From: Acidobacteriota bacterium
GTDB lineage: Bacteria; Acidobacteriota; Blastocatellia; RBC074
Assembly (NCBI GenBank): GCA_040007715.1
Contig: JBDTUN010000644.1
Coordinates: forward strand, 1-58,432
Length of the DNA: 58,432 nucleotides
Direction of reading: 5' to 3'
The position numbers were made by a program, and so were the translations under genes. Every line of letters begins with the position of its first letter. The first letter of the stretch is position 1. Below, one piece after another: positions 36,946-43,998 of the stretch. Under the pieces are notes generated by a model that worked only from the letters and a program-made list of their open reading frames with translations, was not told the origin of the DNA and ran no database searches.

Positions 36946-38301
<1,356 letters not shown>

Positions 38302-38304
38302 GCA

Positions 38305-38338
38305 TGTAGTATTTACAATCGGCAGTGTAGTATTTACA
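38305..38338. promoter_or_regulatory. Tandem palindromic transcription-factor sites
   Basis: TGTAGTATTTACA (TGTA-N5-TACA) occurs at 38305-38317 and 38326-38338, with a 21-bp period. Confidence 0.6.
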
Positions 38339-38454
38339 GTCGTCAGTCAGGCTGGATATTTGTATTGATTGGTTTCTACCTCTTGTAAATCAGTAAACTG
38401 CCTTCTTTTTTTTCGGGTATTCCTTGCCCCCTGGTAGGATTTCTAATTTTTGGC

Positions 38455-38484
38455 TTGACAGTCCTGTCTTGCGCGTAGTATTAA
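38455..38484 (+). promoter_or_regulatory. Putative sigma70 promoter
   Basis: Perfect TTGACA at 38455 followed by TAGTATTAA (candidate -10 elements at 15-18 nt spacing). Confidence 0.5.
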
Positions 38485-38489
38485 AACCT

Positions 38490-39170
38490 CGCATCCCAAC
38501 AACGAAGCTGTACCCAATAACTAACATCCAAATGGGTCTGTGTTTTGGCGTTATTCCCAAAAAGGATTGGCCGTCTTTCTAAGAGGTAACGCCTAATAGG
38601 ACTTTTGGTAGATTAGGCTTCAGTACAACGATGTTGTAAGTAGGATGATAACTAAAGTGTGGTGCCCGGACTTTAGCTCGCAGTCGCCAACCTTACTGTT
38701 TCCCCTACCTAATCCCATCGTACAGCGGCTACTCATGAATAAACGTTCAATTGTTATTAAGCTTTTCTTTGCCCAAGCTGTTTTCCAACGGTAGCAATGA
38801 TAATGATGTAGCTCGCTCTTAGCACTACCCACACAACGCCGTCCCAAATTCTGAAATAAGCATGCTCAATTAAGTAGCTGGTGGGTGGAAGTGTGCACAC
38901 CCACTGCAAAAGAGCTTTGTGTTTACCATGCCTGTCTGATTTCAGGCAGGCTCTTTGACAAACAAAAATCGGATAGATTTAAGTCAAAGGCTAAAAATAT
39001 TGGAAGGTAGTTGGGGCTTGCCTGAGCGCCGGATTTAGGAGAACATGCCAGTTATACCGATAACAGTTACTGTACTGAACGCGAGTCCGTTAAACTGGCT
39101 CGGTTGGTTTAACGGCGTGATGTATATTACGGTGCTTAGGCAATAACATCTCAACTTACTTATCCGACTC
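38490..39170 (+). ncRNA. Candidate large structured RNA / long 5' leader (about 700 nt)
   Basis: Many nested helices, including long-range ones (38507-38513/38720-38726; 38726-38733/38873-38880; 39018-39031/39130-39143), with no long ORF; ends just before the SD of the next gene. Confidence 0.5.
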
Positions 39171-39184
39171 AAGGAGAAAATATT

Positions 39185-41164
39185 ATGGTGCCTCGTAATT
39201 TGTATCCATCGGAAATCGGAACTAGGTCGAAATTCAGAAACCGGGCTGTGCTGGTTACTGCGTTGATGCTGGCCAGCTTGCTTATAGCCGGTAGCTCTAC
39301 GCCGGCGTTTGCGCAGTTTTCAGGCATGAAAGCGCAAACCATCGAACTCGAAGCGACTCCGATTTCAGATTCGCAAATCCGCCTGAACTGGCGGATCAAC
39401 TATCCTAAAGATGTTACTAGCATTCGCATCTACCGTGCCCACTACGTAACACCGGACAATTTCGTCTTTTTGACGTCATTGGCGGCAAATACATTGAGCT
39501 TCGTGGATTCGGGGCTGAAGGCGAAGGCTACCTGGATATATCGCATTCAGACCTCGGAAAAGAAGCCGGCCATGCTGTCGTCCCCATCGAATGTGGTAAG
39601 GGTGACGACGCTGGATGTGCCTGCCGATCCTGGTACGAAGCAACAGGGTGGGCCGGATGAGCCGAAAACGACTACGGATGATCCTTCGATCGGCAGCATG
39701 ATTCAGACGCTGTCGGCGAGGGCAATTTCGGCGAATGAGATCGAATTGAGATGGGCGATCCCGAATATGAATGGCGTGTCGTCCATGCGCATCTTTCGCG
39801 CCTCATCTTTTGACCCGAAGAATTTCATTATGGTCAGCACGGTTGGATCGAATTTTAACCGTTATGTTGATCCGGATTTGAAACCGCGCACGACTTACTA
39901 CTACCAGATAAAGTACAACCTGAATAGCACAGGTGCGCGGCTTTCACCGCCGTCGAACACAGCGTCGGCGACCACGCCGGATGGGGCTGATCCCAATCCG
40001 CGCGCAAAGCTGGCCGCCCAGCGTCCCAAGCCAGGCATTTTGTTCGAACTCTCTCCGGGCGGCATCGGGTCGGCCATTCCGCTGGACAACGCCGAGAACG
40101 ATTTCCTGTTCCTGCTTAACAAGTATCGGGCGTCCAGAGGCGTCGGGCCGGTGCGTGCTTCGGTTGCATTGACGATGGCCAGCGATGCGCTCAGCAAGGA
40201 TTTGGCAAACCGCGAAGTCCTCAGCAAATCCAACTCGGACGGCTTCGGCGGTTATATGCGTTATCGGGGATTCGGGTTCTACAAGTTCGATATCAACTAC
40301 GACACGCTGGCGGCTATCACCAGAATGATGGACATTCCGGCATTTTTCGACGAGGTGAGGCAGTCCCCAGAGTTAAACGCGATGATGCTCCGGCCGGAGT
40401 GGAAGACCGTCGGAATCGGACGCGCGTACAGCGGCGCAGGTTCTTATTACTGGGTTGTGGACTTTGTTAATTACTGGGATAAGACCATTCCGCTGGGCGG
40501 CGAAGACACCGATGGCCGTGTTGACGGCAACGAGCGTGTTCGCACCCGCCCGCCTTTTGATTCGCTATTGGCGAACGCCAGGCTGACTGGCTACGGCGAC
40601 GACGGCAAGTCCTACTCTCCGGTGCATTGCGATACCGAAACGAATGAATGCTGGCGCGACCCAGCGCCGGGCGACAACCGCAGTCTGAGCGAAGATTCGC
40701 TGCCGGAGAACATGACAGGGATGTGGCATGTCGCATACCAGATCAATCCGAAAGGCGTGATGCACTTCAACTCTCCCGACAGGTTCGATATGACGGAGTT
40801 CACGATGTCCCTGCTCATTAATGAAAATGGGACCTGGGTGTCGCAAGGGTACAAAGCCTATCAAGAACCACCACCGACCGAGGCGGGCACGTGGAAGTGG
40901 GTGCACGATGCCGCCAAGGGCGAAGAGATAGTGACGTTCTTCCGCGACAACGGCAAACAGGCAGCAACGTTCCGGGTTCATGCCTCGCCGGGAGTCATGA
41001 CTTTCTTTGTTGTGGATGGCGGAGACTTCTTCAAAGGCGTCAAGGGCGACTACAATCCCACCGACGATGCGCAGGTGATCTCCCTGCCAGGCGCAGGATT
41101 CTTTCTGGGATCGGCATCGCCATTCCCATCAGGATTGCGTTGTGGCACGTGCCCGCAACCTTAA
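39185..41164 (+). CDS. Secreted protein with two fibronectin type III domains, a CAP (SCP) domain and an unassigned C-terminal domain
   Basis: Signal peptide ending AFA-Q; two FN3 repeats (ISDSQIRLNW...FVDSGLKAKATWIYRI; ISANEIELRW...YVDPDLKPRTTYYYQI); CAP motifs (LLNKYRASRGVGPV...SPELNAMML.PEWKTVGIGRAY...YYWVVDF); SD AAGGAG. Confidence 0.78.
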   Translation: MVPRNLYPSEIGTRSKFRNRAVLVTALMLASLLIAGSSTPAFAQFSGMKAQTIELEATPISDSQIRLNWRINYPKDVTSIRIYRAHYVTPDNFVFLTSLAANTLSFVDSGLKAKATWIYRIQTSEKKPAMLSSPSNVVRVTTLDVPADPGTKQQGGPDEPKTTTDDPSIGSMIQTLSARAISANEIELRWAIPNMNGVSSMRIFRASSFDPKNFIMVSTVGSNFNRYVDPDLKPRTTYYYQIKYNLNSTGARLSPPSNTASATTPDGADPNPRAKLAAQRPKPGILFELSPGGIGSAIPLDNAENDFLFLLNKYRASRGVGPVRASVALTMASDALSKDLANREVLSKSNSDGFGGYMRYRGFGFYKFDINYDTLAAITRMMDIPAFFDEVRQSPELNAMMLRPEWKTVGIGRAYSGAGSYYWVVDFVNYWDKTIPLGGEDTDGRVDGNERVRTRPPFDSLLANARLTGYGDDGKSYSPVHCDTETNECWRDPAPGDNRSLSEDSLPENMTGMWHVAYQINPKGVMHFNSPDRFDMTEFTMSLLINENGTWVSQGYKAYQEPPPTEAGTWKWVHDAAKGEEIVTFFRDNGKQAATFRVHASPGVMTFFVVDGGDFFKGVKGDYNPTDDAQVISLPGAGFFLGSASPFPSGLRCGTCPQP

Positions 41165-41369: not shown

Positions 41370-42986
41370 ATGAGTTTTCCGAGGGCGAGCGGGGTATTGC
41401 TTCACCCGACTTCGTTGCCTGGGTCGTCGGGAATCGGCGATCTGGGACAAGCGGCGTATGAATTCATAGACTTTCTGGAAGAGACCGGGCAGAGCCTGTG
41501 GCAGGTGCTGCCTTTAGGGCCGACAGGCTATGGCGATTCGCCATACCAATGTTTTTCGGCCTTTGCTGGCAATCCTGTGTTGATCAGCCTGGAAACCTTG
41601 GTGGCTGATGGATGGCTCAATGACAAGGACTTGGCCGATGCGCCGGCATTTTCCGCCGACCACGTTGATTATGGCGCTGTCATCGAATTCAAAACCAAAC
41701 TGCTCACCCGTGCGCACGCCCACTTTGTTGAAGAGGCTTCGGATAAGGATAAAGCCGATTACCTGAGATTCACGCAGCAGACCGCGTGGTGGCTGGATGA
41801 TTACGCGGCATACCGCGCCATCAAGGACGATCACGGCGGCCAGGAGTGGACGAAGTGGCAGCCATTCATGCGCGATCGTGAAAACAAGGCCCTGCACTTT
41901 TTTCGCGAAAATCACGCGCTCGACATCAGCCGCCATAAATTCTGGCAATACATATTCTTTAAACAGTGGCTTTCGCTTGCGAGTTATGCGAGCAGCAAAG
42001 GCGTCAAGATGATAGGTGACGCGCCAATCTTCGTCGCGCACGATTCAGCCGACGTGTGGGCGAACCGGGAGCTTTTCTACCTGGACGAAAAAGGCGAGCC
42101 GACCGCCGTCGCTGGCGTGCCGCCGGACTATTTCAGCGAAACCGGGCAGTTGTGGGGAAACCCGCTTTACCGCTGGGACGTGATGGCGAAGGATGGATAT
42201 GAGTGGTGGCTCAAACGCATCCGCGCGACGCTGGCGATGGTAGACCTTGTCCGGCTCGATCATTTCCGCGGCTTTGAAAAATATTGGGCCGTGCCCGCTG
42301 GCGAAACCACTGCCGTCAATGGCGAATGGGAACCGGGGCCGGGCGCGGATTTGTTCAACGCGATTCAGAAAGCCTTTGCCGTGGCGGACGGTCCGTTGCC
42401 GATCATTGCCGAAGACCTGGGGATGATTACGCCAGAGGTCGAAGCGTTGCGCGATGAGTTCGACCTGCCAGGCATGCGCATTTTGCAATTCGCCTTCGGC
42501 ACTGACGCTCAGGCCGACGAGTTCAAGCCCTACAGTTTCAAACCGAACACGATTGTTTACACAGGCACGCACGACAACGACACGACTGTCGGCTGGTTCA
42601 CCAGTCAGGACGCCGGAGCCAGTACGCGCAGCCAGGATGATGTCAACGAAGAGCGCGAATTCGTGCTGAAGTATCTGGGATCGGACGGCGCGGAGATTCA
42701 TTGGGATTTCATCCGTCTGGCATTGGCGTCAGTGGCCAACACAGCGGTTATCCCGCTGCAGGATGTGTTGGGATTGGGCAGCGAAGCGCGAATGAACACG
42801 CCCGCGCGCGAAAGCGGCAACTGGGGCTGGCGCTACAGGGCGGAGCAGTTGACGCCGGAGATTCGCGCGCGCCTGGCTGAACTGACCGAAATTTACGGAC
42901 GCAACCGCGCACGTTTGAAGAAGGCAGAAGCGGCAACAGATACCATGGGCGATGCCATTAGCGATGCAGACCCACCGGCAGAGTAA
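41370..42986 (+). CDS. malQ: 4-alpha-glucanotransferase (amylomaltase, GH77)
   Basis: RASGVLLHPTSLPG, WQVLPLGPTG, GVPPDYFSETGQLWGNPLY, RLDHFRGF, IAEDLG, YTGTHDNDT, RMNTP. Confidence 0.98.
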   Translation: MSFPRASGVLLHPTSLPGSSGIGDLGQAAYEFIDFLEETGQSLWQVLPLGPTGYGDSPYQCFSAFAGNPVLISLETLVADGWLNDKDLADAPAFSADHVDYGAVIEFKTKLLTRAHAHFVEEASDKDKADYLRFTQQTAWWLDDYAAYRAIKDDHGGQEWTKWQPFMRDRENKALHFFRENHALDISRHKFWQYIFFKQWLSLASYASSKGVKMIGDAPIFVAHDSADVWANRELFYLDEKGEPTAVAGVPPDYFSETGQLWGNPLYRWDVMAKDGYEWWLKRIRATLAMVDLVRLDHFRGFEKYWAVPAGETTAVNGEWEPGPGADLFNAIQKAFAVADGPLPIIAEDLGMITPEVEALRDEFDLPGMRILQFAFGTDAQADEFKPYSFKPNTIVYTGTHDNDTTVGWFTSQDAGASTRSQDDVNEEREFVLKYLGSDGAEIHWDFIRLALASVANTAVIPLQDVLGLGSEARMNTPARESGNWGWRYRAEQLTPEIRARLAELTEIYGRNRARLKKAEAATDTMGDAISDADPPAE

Positions 42987-42993
42987 AAAAAAT

Positions 42994-43998
42994 ATGTCAT
43001 TCTCCTCCGGGAAAATTTTGCTGTTTGGATTGCTGCTGTTTGCGGTGGCGTCGGTGCCTGCGCAGGAACCTCGATCTTCGCCGGGCGAAGCCATCAAGAT
43101 CAACACCGACCTGGTTGTGCTGGACGCGCAGATTCTGCGCAAAAAAGACGGCGCGGTTGTCAGCGCACTCCGGCGCGAAGAGTTGATGCTTTACGAAGAC
43201 GGCGTCCGGCAGGAGATCACGCATTTCAGCCAGGACAAACTGCCGCTGTCAATCCTGCTGCTGCTGGACCTGAGCGCCAGCGTCAAACCTGTCATCGAAG
43301 AGATTCGCAACGGCGCGCTTGAAGCCTTGCGCCAATTGCGGCCCGAAGACGAAGTCGCGCTGATGGCCTTTGCCGATAAAACCGATTTGCTTCACGATTT
43401 CACCAAAGACCGCAAGGCGGTTGTAAATCAGGTCAGCCGCGTGCTGGAAAAGCGCTTCGTGGGCGTCGGCACGTCGCTGCATACGGCCCTGTACGATGCC
43501 GCATTGCAGATGGATCATGCGACCAATCCTCTGAGCCGCCGCGTCATCATTGCCGTCACCGACAACATTGCTACGATGCATCGCTTCACCAATCCGACCA
43601 TCGCCGAAGTCAATGAACGCTTGCTGGATCACAGCAGCGTCGTCTGCGGATTGGTGGTGGGCGGCGCAACGTCGAAGACGCTCAACATCTTCCTGCGCGA
43701 CCACAAAGACGTTTATAACTGGAAGGTCAAAGTTGATGATTTCGCCGAACCGACCGGCGGCGAAGTGATGAACACCAATGCGCAGGATGTAAATCAAAAG
43801 CTGGGCGAAATGATCGCTCACCTGCGCGTGCGCTACAGCCTTGGTTATACGCCGCCAGCAACCTCCGCCGACGGGCGCTTTCGCCACATCAAGCTGATGG
43901 TCGTGGATGATGTGCAGAAACGGGAAGGGCCGATTGTCATCAAAACCAGACAGGGCTACTTCGCGCGCCAACGCCAAACGATACAAAAACCTGATTGA
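42994..43998 (+). CDS. VWA domain protein (acidobacterial VWFA-related family), secreted
   Basis: Signal peptide; IKINTDLVVLD, LYEDGVRQEI..F, MIDAS DLSAS, TGG, YSLGY.P, R.GYFA. Confidence 0.88.
   Translation: MSFSSGKILLFGLLLFAVASVPAQEPRSSPGEAIKINTDLVVLDAQILRKKDGAVVSALRREELMLYEDGVRQEITHFSQDKLPLSILLLLDLSASVKPVIEEIRNGALEALRQLRPEDEVALMAFADKTDLLHDFTKDRKAVVNQVSRVLEKRFVGVGTSLHTALYDAALQMDHATNPLSRRVIIAVTDNIATMHRFTNPTIAEVNERLLDHSSVVCGLVVGGATSKTLNIFLRDHKDVYNWKVKVDDFAEPTGGEVMNTNAQDVNQKLGEMIAHLRVRYSLGYTPPATSADGRFRHIKLMVVDDVQKREGPIVIKTRQGYFARQRQTIQKPD

Follow-up and report, generated by a model that had tools for sequence, protein, structure and literature searches.

A candidate structured 5' leader tied to one CAP/FN3 gene in a family of Blastocatellia

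Known riboswitch classes serve several genes across wide taxa, and OLE, GOLLD, ROOL and HEARO are Rfam families of large bacterial non-coding RNAs. In the thrS operator and in ribosomal-protein leaders, a mimic copies the tRNA or rRNA target of the regulator, which is itself the gene product. Long structured 5' untranslated regions are said to be common in bacterial mRNAs (excerpt of PMC3936740). In the rpoS leader of E. coli, small RNAs open an inhibitory stem close to the start and also reduce premature termination by Rho (excerpt of PMC5766208). Acido-1 (RF01686) and Acido-Lenti-1 (RF01687) are structured RNA candidates from Acidobacteria that the excerpted text of PMC2864571 marks as not cis-regulatory. 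Here we describe a candidate RNA leader in a 58,432-nucleotide (nt) stretch of DNA (contig JBDTUN010000644.1; hereafter the window) from the metagenome-assembled genome of a soil Acidobacteriota bacterium of the class Blastocatellia. It lies in an 883-nt gap (38302-39184) between two plus-strand open reading frames (ORFs), the second of which is the CAP/FN3 gene, encoding a predicted secreted protein of 659 amino acids (aa).

On balance, we think that this region is probably a long structured 5' untranslated leader of the CAP/FN3 gene, transcribed rightwards from a promoter at 38455-38484, with a 5' domain bound by a trans-acting factor that controls access to the ribosome-binding site. Since it occurs as a single copy before one gene, it reads as a gene-specific cis-regulatory element; neither an OLE/GOLLD-type RNA nor a riboswitch of wide distribution fits. 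Its role is probably to tune expression of the CAP/FN3 gene alone. The leader matches no described RNA family, and its kind, a structured mRNA leader, is already known. Its features are listed in Table 1.

The element is physically linked to the CAP/FN3 gene and present once per genome, which bears out the initial annotation in tying an RNA to a gene for an extracellular protein. Close relatives of the 659-aa protein are found in 19 species-representative records from one Blastocatellia family. Homologues at E <= 1e-20 occur in 43 of the 87 genomes of this family (the window's own included), and in all 21 other genomes of the genus (g1). Every one of the 17 orthologue loci with upstream sequence has an ORF-free gap of ~670-1005 nt before the gene. 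A blastn search with the gap gave matches in 10 of the 21 other genomes of the genus and in none of 39 further relatives, and most of these matches span window positions 38440-38514. We assembled 25 distinct leaders from three genera, 24 from genomes and one from a metagenome locus; a metagenome scan yielded only two additional loci. These 25 leaders are ORF-free and measure 489-694 nt from GCATCC to ATG.

A covariance model of the leader core, R1 (96 positions, 19 pairs), matches the window at 38625..38720 with 68.9 bits (E 2e-14). This is the sole match in the 8.9-Mb assembly, in which neither nhmmer nor R1 found a second copy of the element. Exactly one match per genome is present in 24 of the 87 family genomes. 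By genus, with the window's own genome excluded, R1 matches 19 of 21 genomes in g1, two of four in g16, two of eight in g2 and none in 14 other genera; these are the sequences from which R1 was built, and they show restriction and single copy, not new members. In the two g1 genomes that have no match, the gene is cut by a contig end. Coordinates were compared in seven genomes, and in each the match and the orthologue share a strand, with the match 314-464 nt upstream of where the gene starts. R1 has no match in 112 genomes from nine other families of the class. As judged from these searches, the leader is lineage-specific, single-copy and tied to one gene.

Seven of the collected records (L016, L019, L020, L023, L025, L026 and L029) are titled "uncultured Heliomicrobium sp." or "Heliomicrobium sp.", a name that belongs to NCBI Bacillota (Heliobacteriaceae). 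These titles are probably a labelling error, because the closest relatives of the records here are titled Blastocatellia or Acidobacteriota.

The best-conserved stretch of the gap is TTCTAATTT..CTTGACA..TAGTAT..GCATCCC (38440-38497), which is invariant or nearly so in all 18 relatives aligned with MAFFT. Throughout genus g1, TAGTA[T/A] sits 15-16 nt upstream of GCATCC. In the two further genera, TTGAC(A/T) is followed after a 17-nt spacer by TTACTT or TTATTT, equally far from GCATCCC, and the TTGAC lies 28-42 nt upstream of GCATCC. A simple promoter scan overlooked the 38455-38484 site, because the spacer between TTGACA and TAGTAT is 15 nt. Transcription likely starts at about 38488-38491 with either choice of -10 box, which agrees with an RNA start near 38490 as first proposed. 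A search for RNA sequencing runs covering 38302-39700 listed none. A positionally conserved complement of the invariant 5' GCAUCCC was looked for in the leaders and not found.

Directly after the stop of the upstream gene is a 21-nt tandem direct repeat (38305-38346) whose two copies are 90% alike. Each copy holds GTAGTATTTAC, similar to the conserved -10 region at 38475-38485 (GTAGTATTAAA). The repeat is a candidate repeated factor-binding site, and the extra copies occur in no relative examined.

Downstream of the promoter-like motif, conservation is concentrated in ~250 nt at the 5' end of the leader, which contains covarying helices. Our structure model combines base-pair probabilities averaged over 24 leaders with hand inspection. 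Across 27 pairs and 25 sequences, 79.1% of cells are paired; sliding the partners by 1-3 columns lowers this to 36-53%. The covariation score is 0.274 (0.225 +/- 0.013 in shuffles) and 32 cells are changed on both sides (15.1 +/- 3.6 in shuffles), each value being matched by none of 500 shuffles; the aligned sequences are close kin, this control overstates significance, and the figures are indicative and not probabilities. Among 647 cells, 95 are G-U and 32 are A-C. Because of the compensatory changes and this threefold excess of G-U over A-C, selection appears to act at the RNA level on the plus strand. Consistent with this, the mismatches that the initial annotation had read as plus-strand G-U pairs are such pairs: six G-U wobbles occur in the window, two of them in the 14-base-pair (bp) stem of domain 3. 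All 14 arm pairs named in that annotation are present once each, at the positions and with the pairing described. RNAalifold, applied to the first alignment of 18 sequences, returned only 13 pairs with a covariation term of -0.25. When cognate arms were exchanged for non-cognate ones in loose windows, the signal was weak or absent (P1 16/24, P4 13/24, P2/P3 9/24, local hairpin 12/24).

Helices P1 and P4 appear to be the two secure helices of a ~100-nt core. P1, which corresponds to the pairing GTAGG/CCTAC seen initially, is present in every relative with differing sequences, such as GGAG/CTCC, TAGG/CCTA, AAGA/TCTT and GAGG/CCTC. P4 pairs GGUG with CRCC. Its four inner pairs are standard in 23-24 of 24 distinct sequences, the variable pair being U-G in 14, U-A in eight and C-G in one, and two close relatives, L060 and L061, have GGCG/CGCC and GGTG/CACC, respectively. 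Among relatives the core contains indels of 1 and 4 nt. 5' of the core, a long-range helix (P-LR) of 7-8 bp, GATCAAC/GTTGATC, has compensatory variants in most relatives, including GGTCAATC/GATTGGCC and AACC../..GGTT. GCCTAAT/ATTAGGC (38591-38618), one of the initially named pairings, is a hairpin local to the window, and it uses the arm that forms the 3' side of P-LR in relatives. CTAAAGT/ACTTTAG has 63.5% of its cells paired across relatives, and it competes with P2/P3, whose inclusion gives a model with 78.7% of cells paired overall. If this local hairpin (38652-38676) formed, P4 would be a pseudoknot. That overlapping, mutually exclusive helices act as a switch is conjecture.

Motifs rich in C (AUCCC, UCCCC, GCCCC and UUCCC) occur four to five times per 5' domain, both in the window (38491-38720) and in the 24 other leaders. 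They occupy conserved places: the 5' end, about +48, the loop of a hairpin (GCUCCCCAGGC, at about +90) that most of the genus has, the core loop and the 3' arm of P1. Four relatives have, at about +50, an element (CAUCCCCGAAUCC) that is nearly a repeat of the core loop (GUGCCCCGAAUC). Motifs of the CsrA type (GGA), counted by eye, are about as frequent as expected by chance.

The leader as a whole folds somewhat better than chance. The minimum free energy of its plus strand is -204 kcal/mol; z is -3.76 relative to 20 dinucleotide shuffles and -2.45 relative to 30, and the minus strand gives z = -2.04 and -2.10 with the same two sets. This excess over shuffles is real but modest, and in the window alone it is little strand-specific. 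In six leaders, the plus-strand z values for the whole leader are -2.45, -1.72, +0.24, -4.25, -3.57 and -3.18. For the 5' domain, the mean z over 25 leaders is -1.16 on the plus strand and +0.45 on the minus strand, and the plus strand folds better than the minus strand in 22 of the 25.

The rest of the leader is more variable. The region was initially seen as ~700 nt of densely base-paired, multi-domain RNA, a picture that does not hold: only the 5' ~250 nt and the Shine-Dalgarno (SD)-proximal helix are conserved, and what lies between varies within leaders of 489-694 nt. The CAGCTAC box of domain 2 is conserved, and most g1 relatives can pair it with a much nearer TAGCTG; the helix that closes domain 2 in the window has no covariation. 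The hairpins at 38881-38989 align only with L014 and partly with L015. None of them has a T-run, and no terminator-like site was found within 38490-39184. The GCCTGTCTG hairpin was considered as an internal terminator and rejected, as it has no T-run and occurs only in the window and L014.

The helix reported to end 3 nt before the SD sequence has a counterpart in most relatives, but the domain 3 that it encloses does not. Domain 3 is present in only five of 24 leaders (the window, L014, L015, L020 and L027), with sequences that are not alike. Counterparts of the SD-proximal helix in the same place are ATTGGAA/TTCCAAT in L015 and TGAAAAATG/CATCTTTCA in L014, and 15 of 25 relatives have a compact purine/pyrimidine hairpin, CAGRAAG..CTTYCTG, directly before the SD sequence. 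A tetramer resembling an anti-SD sequence lies at most 19 nt from the SD sequence in 17 of 25 leaders, versus 23% of background windows.

Several observations weigh against the proposed leader. The expectation that the region would fold beyond shuffled controls is moderately supported for the whole leader, but in the window the 5' domain by itself is at the level of shuffles (z = +0.05). Over the 25 leaders the mean z of this domain is only -1.16, with values below -2 in four. Besides the close kinship of the aligned sequences, two of the five covariation measures are at shuffle level: double-change pairs number 10 versus 8.7, and further pair types 34 versus 35.5. The closure of the 5' domain by GCTGTAC/GTACAGC is not general, since a helix of at least 6 bp forms in only ~10 of 25 leaders and the mean duplex z is a weak -0.58. 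P-LR has shrunk to 4 bp in the window. The anti-SD-like tetramer is missing from the window and seven other leaders. Four more distant orthologues (L054, L055, L059 and L062) lack a match to the R1 core. Finally, a 68%-identical paralogue in the same genome follows a gap of the same length (~700 nt) that has no similarity to the leader, so long upstream gaps may be a habit of this gene family.

If the region is a regulatory leader, its RNA would start at about GCAUCCC (38491) and run rightwards into the CAP/FN3 gene. The first ~250 nt would fold into P-LR and the P1/P4 core (38640-38708), with several unpaired C-rich motifs, and the variable middle would come next. A terminal helix would then place a pyrimidine-rich 3' arm 2-8 nt before the ribosome-binding site. 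A trans-acting factor might bind the 5' domain, and presence as a single copy, before one gene and in only three genera, makes a protein or small RNA a likelier partner than a metabolite. Its binding could shift pairing in the leader and so set the accessibility of the ribosome-binding site, and perhaps also decide whether the long untranslated transcript is completed. The comparisons show conservation, linkage to the gene, the strand and covarying helices; the transcription start, any switching and a signal are what we infer.

The nearest working analogy may be the rpoS leader, which, as described in the excerpt of PMC5766208 and like the putative leader here, extends untranslated for several hundred nt before a single gene and has a stem close to the start, one that can limit ribosome binding. 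In the present case, a conserved promoter motif lies 489-694 nt upstream of the ORF with no terminator-like site between. The two leaders have no sequence or family relation and belong to different phyla, and in the window the SD sequence is predicted to be mostly free.

The arrangement of a conserved structured 5' domain followed by an SD-adjacent helix with a pyrimidine-rich 3' arm also resembles a translational riboswitch. A covarying, aptamer-like domain is present, although among close kin this is indicative only, and the element does not recur before several genes or in wide taxa. Unlike riboswitches, it occurs once per genome, before one gene and in three genera. It matches no riboswitch in Rfam, and the CAP/FN3 gene suggests no ligand. 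OLE, GOLLD, ROOL and HEARO RNAs are comparable in having several helices and an overall length of 500-700 nt, but here only ~250 nt are conserved, fixed before one ORF. Acido-1 and Acido-Lenti-1 share with the leader their origin as structured RNA candidates from Acidobacteria, but they are not cis-regulatory according to the excerpted text of PMC2864571, and neither matches the window.

The initial annotation recognized no known riboswitch or other RNA family, and database searches agree. With the 4227 models of Rfam 15, the whole window has no match at gathering score. At E <= 10 with permissive filters, 38250-39250 has four matches of 12-19 bits, versus cut-offs of 37-90, all to small nucleolar RNA or small RNA models and two of them on the minus strand; OLE, GOLLD, ROOL and HEARO are not among the matches at this threshold. 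The suggestion of an undescribed large structured RNA thus stands as to an undescribed RNA-level element on the plus strand, and does not stand as to the OLE/GOLLD/ROOL kind. In full-text literature, no paper joining Blastocatellia with riboswitches was found. The motifs listed for the phylum in the excerpted text of PMC2864571 are the two named above, Acido-1 and Acido-Lenti-1, both of them in Rfam; supplementary files of such motif surveys could hold unnamed candidates.

Within the core lies a near copy of the region where the gene itself starts. The heart of the core, NTGGTGCC(C/T)CG (38659-38669 in the window), repeats the gene start ATGGTGCCTCG. In 22 of 24 leaders, the core and the true start have TGGTGCC in common, and the two regions agree at 7-13 of 15 positions (mean 10.2). 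It is possible, though rather unlikely, that the core is a functional look-alike of the translation start (an SD-like GGAG and then NUGGUGCCCCG, the true start being AUGGUGCCUCG), folded into P1/P4 and acting as an operator or decoy for a factor that recognizes the AUGGUGCC start common to CAP-domain paralogues. In holding a look-alike of a functional RNA site, the leader would resemble the thrS operator and ribosomal-protein leaders, except that the site here is the gene's own start and the CAP/FN3 product is exported. The ATGGTGCC start is invariant in 24 of 24 aligned leaders, and ATGGTGCCTCGTAAC is found in 18 of them. The assembly contains 133 occurrences of ATGGTGCC on both strands, of which six are SD-preceded starts of ORFs of at least 100 aa. 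The start sequence is probably fixed by a conserved MVP N-terminus, because four of these six in the genome are CAP-family paralogues. Alternative pairing of the 3' half of the core with the true start is unsupported (mean duplex z -0.77; p < 0.05 in two of 25). A functional look-alike would make the leader a riboregulator that works by start-site mimicry on a family of secreted proteins in Acidobacteria, and a literature search found no described cis-regulatory RNA of this kind for that group.

The 5' domain (~38491-38730) might instead be a separate trans-acting non-coding RNA, either processed from the transcript or reading through into the gene. The conservation of the first ~250 nt, followed by 200-400 nt that are free to vary, would suit such an RNA, as would the four to five C-rich unpaired motifs that recur in each 5' domain. 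Motifs of this type resemble the seed regions of some regulatory RNAs. We consider this unlikely: no terminator-like site is present in 38490-39184 or conserved in relatives, the element is never found away from the gene, occurring once per genome and invariably ahead of the orthologue, and conservation extends to the SD-proximal helix.

Another use of the start copy in the core (NTGGTGCCCCG, 38659-38669) would be as a working upstream start, from which ribosomes translate a short upstream ORF and thereby remodel the leader. By our count by eye, the first base of the core NTG is never C (A in 15, T in seven and G in three), which is not significant over a handful of independent changes. The core has TGGTGCC in common with the true start in 22 of 24 leaders, and its first codons often read MVPR, as in the protein. 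Translation from this site is nonetheless improbable, since the resulting ORF ranges from five to more than 50 codons even among close relatives, the NTG sits inside helix P4, and the nearest SD-like GGAG is ~14 nt away and itself paired in P1. The same variation in length excludes a leader-peptide attenuator with a conserved short ORF.

The SD-like GGAG and the start-region copy in the core could also be remains of an older start (GGAG..ATGGTGCC) that was displaced by insertion or partial duplication, which would make the leader largely a relic and its structure a mixture of drift and retained blocks. The gene family occurs in tandem arrays, so duplication is frequent, and the leader's middle part varies freely. 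However, no protein similarity to the family is left in the leader (best E 0.85), and a neutral relic would lose the invariant columns and compensatory changes with which the core has been kept in three genera; we rate this account, too, as improbable.

That the gap is mainly a control region at the DNA level, whose conserved blocks are factor sites or an upstream promoter while the working promoter lies near the gene, is very improbable. The two extra GTAGTATTTAC copies in the 38305-38346 repeat resemble the -10 region and hint at a DNA-binding factor, but the repeat is unique to the window and no conserved promoter-like motif is found near the SD sequence. Compensatory changes and the 3:1 ratio of G-U over A-C indicate that the plus strand is transcribed.

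A decayed gene or conserved small ORF is not supported by tblastn (18 homologous gaps searched with the proteins encoded on either side and two paralogues; best E 0.85), by Pfam or by comparison of small ORFs between clades. None of seven leader ORFs has a Pfam family above cut-off; a sub-threshold match to IlvGEDA_leader is on the minus strand (E 0.035; 14 bits versus a cut-off of 25). Among the 25 leaders, translated pieces give 75 matches between clades at E <= 1e-3, on both strands and in all frames, with 21 plus and 19 minus among the best 40. We take these matches to be nucleotide conservation without a reading frame.

Table 1. Positions of the features of the leader and its flanking genes in the window.
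Feature	Position	Strand	Remarks
TTTCTAATTT element 5' of the -35 box (UP-like element or factor site)	38440..38449	+	Nearly invariant in genus-g1 leaders (MAFFT of 18 upstream regions)
Promoter-like motif	38455..38484	+	TTGACA 38455-38460 with TAGTAT 38476-38481 (15-nt spacer) or TATTAA 38479-38484 (18-nt spacer)
GCATCCC, conserved first bases of the putative transcript	38491..38497	+	GCATCC invariant in 25/25 aligned leaders
5' arm of the helix closing the 5' domain, GCTGTAC	38507..38513	+	Partner GTACAGC 38720-38726; 7 bp in window
P-LR remnant CTAA	38521..38524	+	Partner TTAG 38613-38616
Conserved core domain (R1 match)	38625..38720	+
P1 5' arm GTAGG	38640..38644	+	Partner CCTAC 38704-38708
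P2/P3, between P1 and P4	AAC 38650-52/GTT 38698-700; AAG 38655-57/CTT 38692-94	+
Local hairpin CTAAAGT/ACTTTAG	38652..38676	+	7 bp in window; excludes P2/P3
GTGGTGCCCGG, near copy of the gene start region	38659..38669	+	TGG-G-C are invariant columns
P4 5' arm TGGTG; 3' arm CGCCA	38660-38664; 38685..38689	+
Domain 2	38726..38880	+	Closed by CGGCTACT/AGTAGCTG
Lineage-specific hairpins	38881..38989	+	GTGGGTG/CACCCAC, GCCTGTCTG/CAGGCAGGC, CTTTGAC/GTCAAAG
SD-proximal helix, ending 3 nt before SD	39000..39167	+	TTGGA + AGTTGGGG with TCTCAACT + TCCGA; encloses domain 3
Domain 3, insertion in loop of SD-proximal helix	39018..39143	+
SD AAGGAG; start ATGGTGCCTCGTAAT	39171-39176; 39185-39199	+
Upstream ORF, pyridine-nucleotide oxidoreductase-like	36946-38301	+
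CAP/FN3 gene, 659-aa protein	39185..41164	+	N-terminal hydrophobic signal-like stretch

Acidobacteria are abundant in soil and hardly studied genetically, and RNA-based regulation in them is almost unknown. The leader, with its fixed promoter, ~100-nt core, SD-proximal helix and exported CAP/FN3 protein, offers a well-delimited, conserved and testable case. If it responds to a signal, it could serve as a regulatory handle for these bacteria and give a clue to when the protein family is deployed. The leader does not amount to a new kind of RNA machine, and being so narrowly distributed it has limited wider impact.

As first described, the region is AT-rich and has no long ORF: G+C is 0.41-0.46 in the gap versus 0.52-0.62 in the flanks, and the ORFs in 38302-39184 are all at most 75 aa. 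The 659-aa protein has Pfam matches to CAP (E 1e-8; residues 310-427) and fn3 (E 4.7e-6; residues 173-258), and its first FN3 domain and signal peptide are readings by eye only. Members of the CAP/FN3 paralogue family start with MVP (ATGGTGCC), and in the window's own genome they lie on contigs C912 (7990-11364), C106 (1671-3815), C101 and C80. Tandem arrays of the family are frequent in relatives, and in many genomes the gene upstream of the leader is a paralogue with 43-45% identity. In C912, two paralogue-like halves lie within one open frame of 1124 codons, which follows an unrelated ORF-free gap of ~700 nt. 3' of the CAP/FN3 gene in the window are a 4-alpha-glucanotransferase gene (41370-42986; Glyco_hydro_77, E 5.5e-183) and a VWA-domain gene (42952-43998), neither of which has an evident link to the leader; the two genes share a 35-nt overlap.

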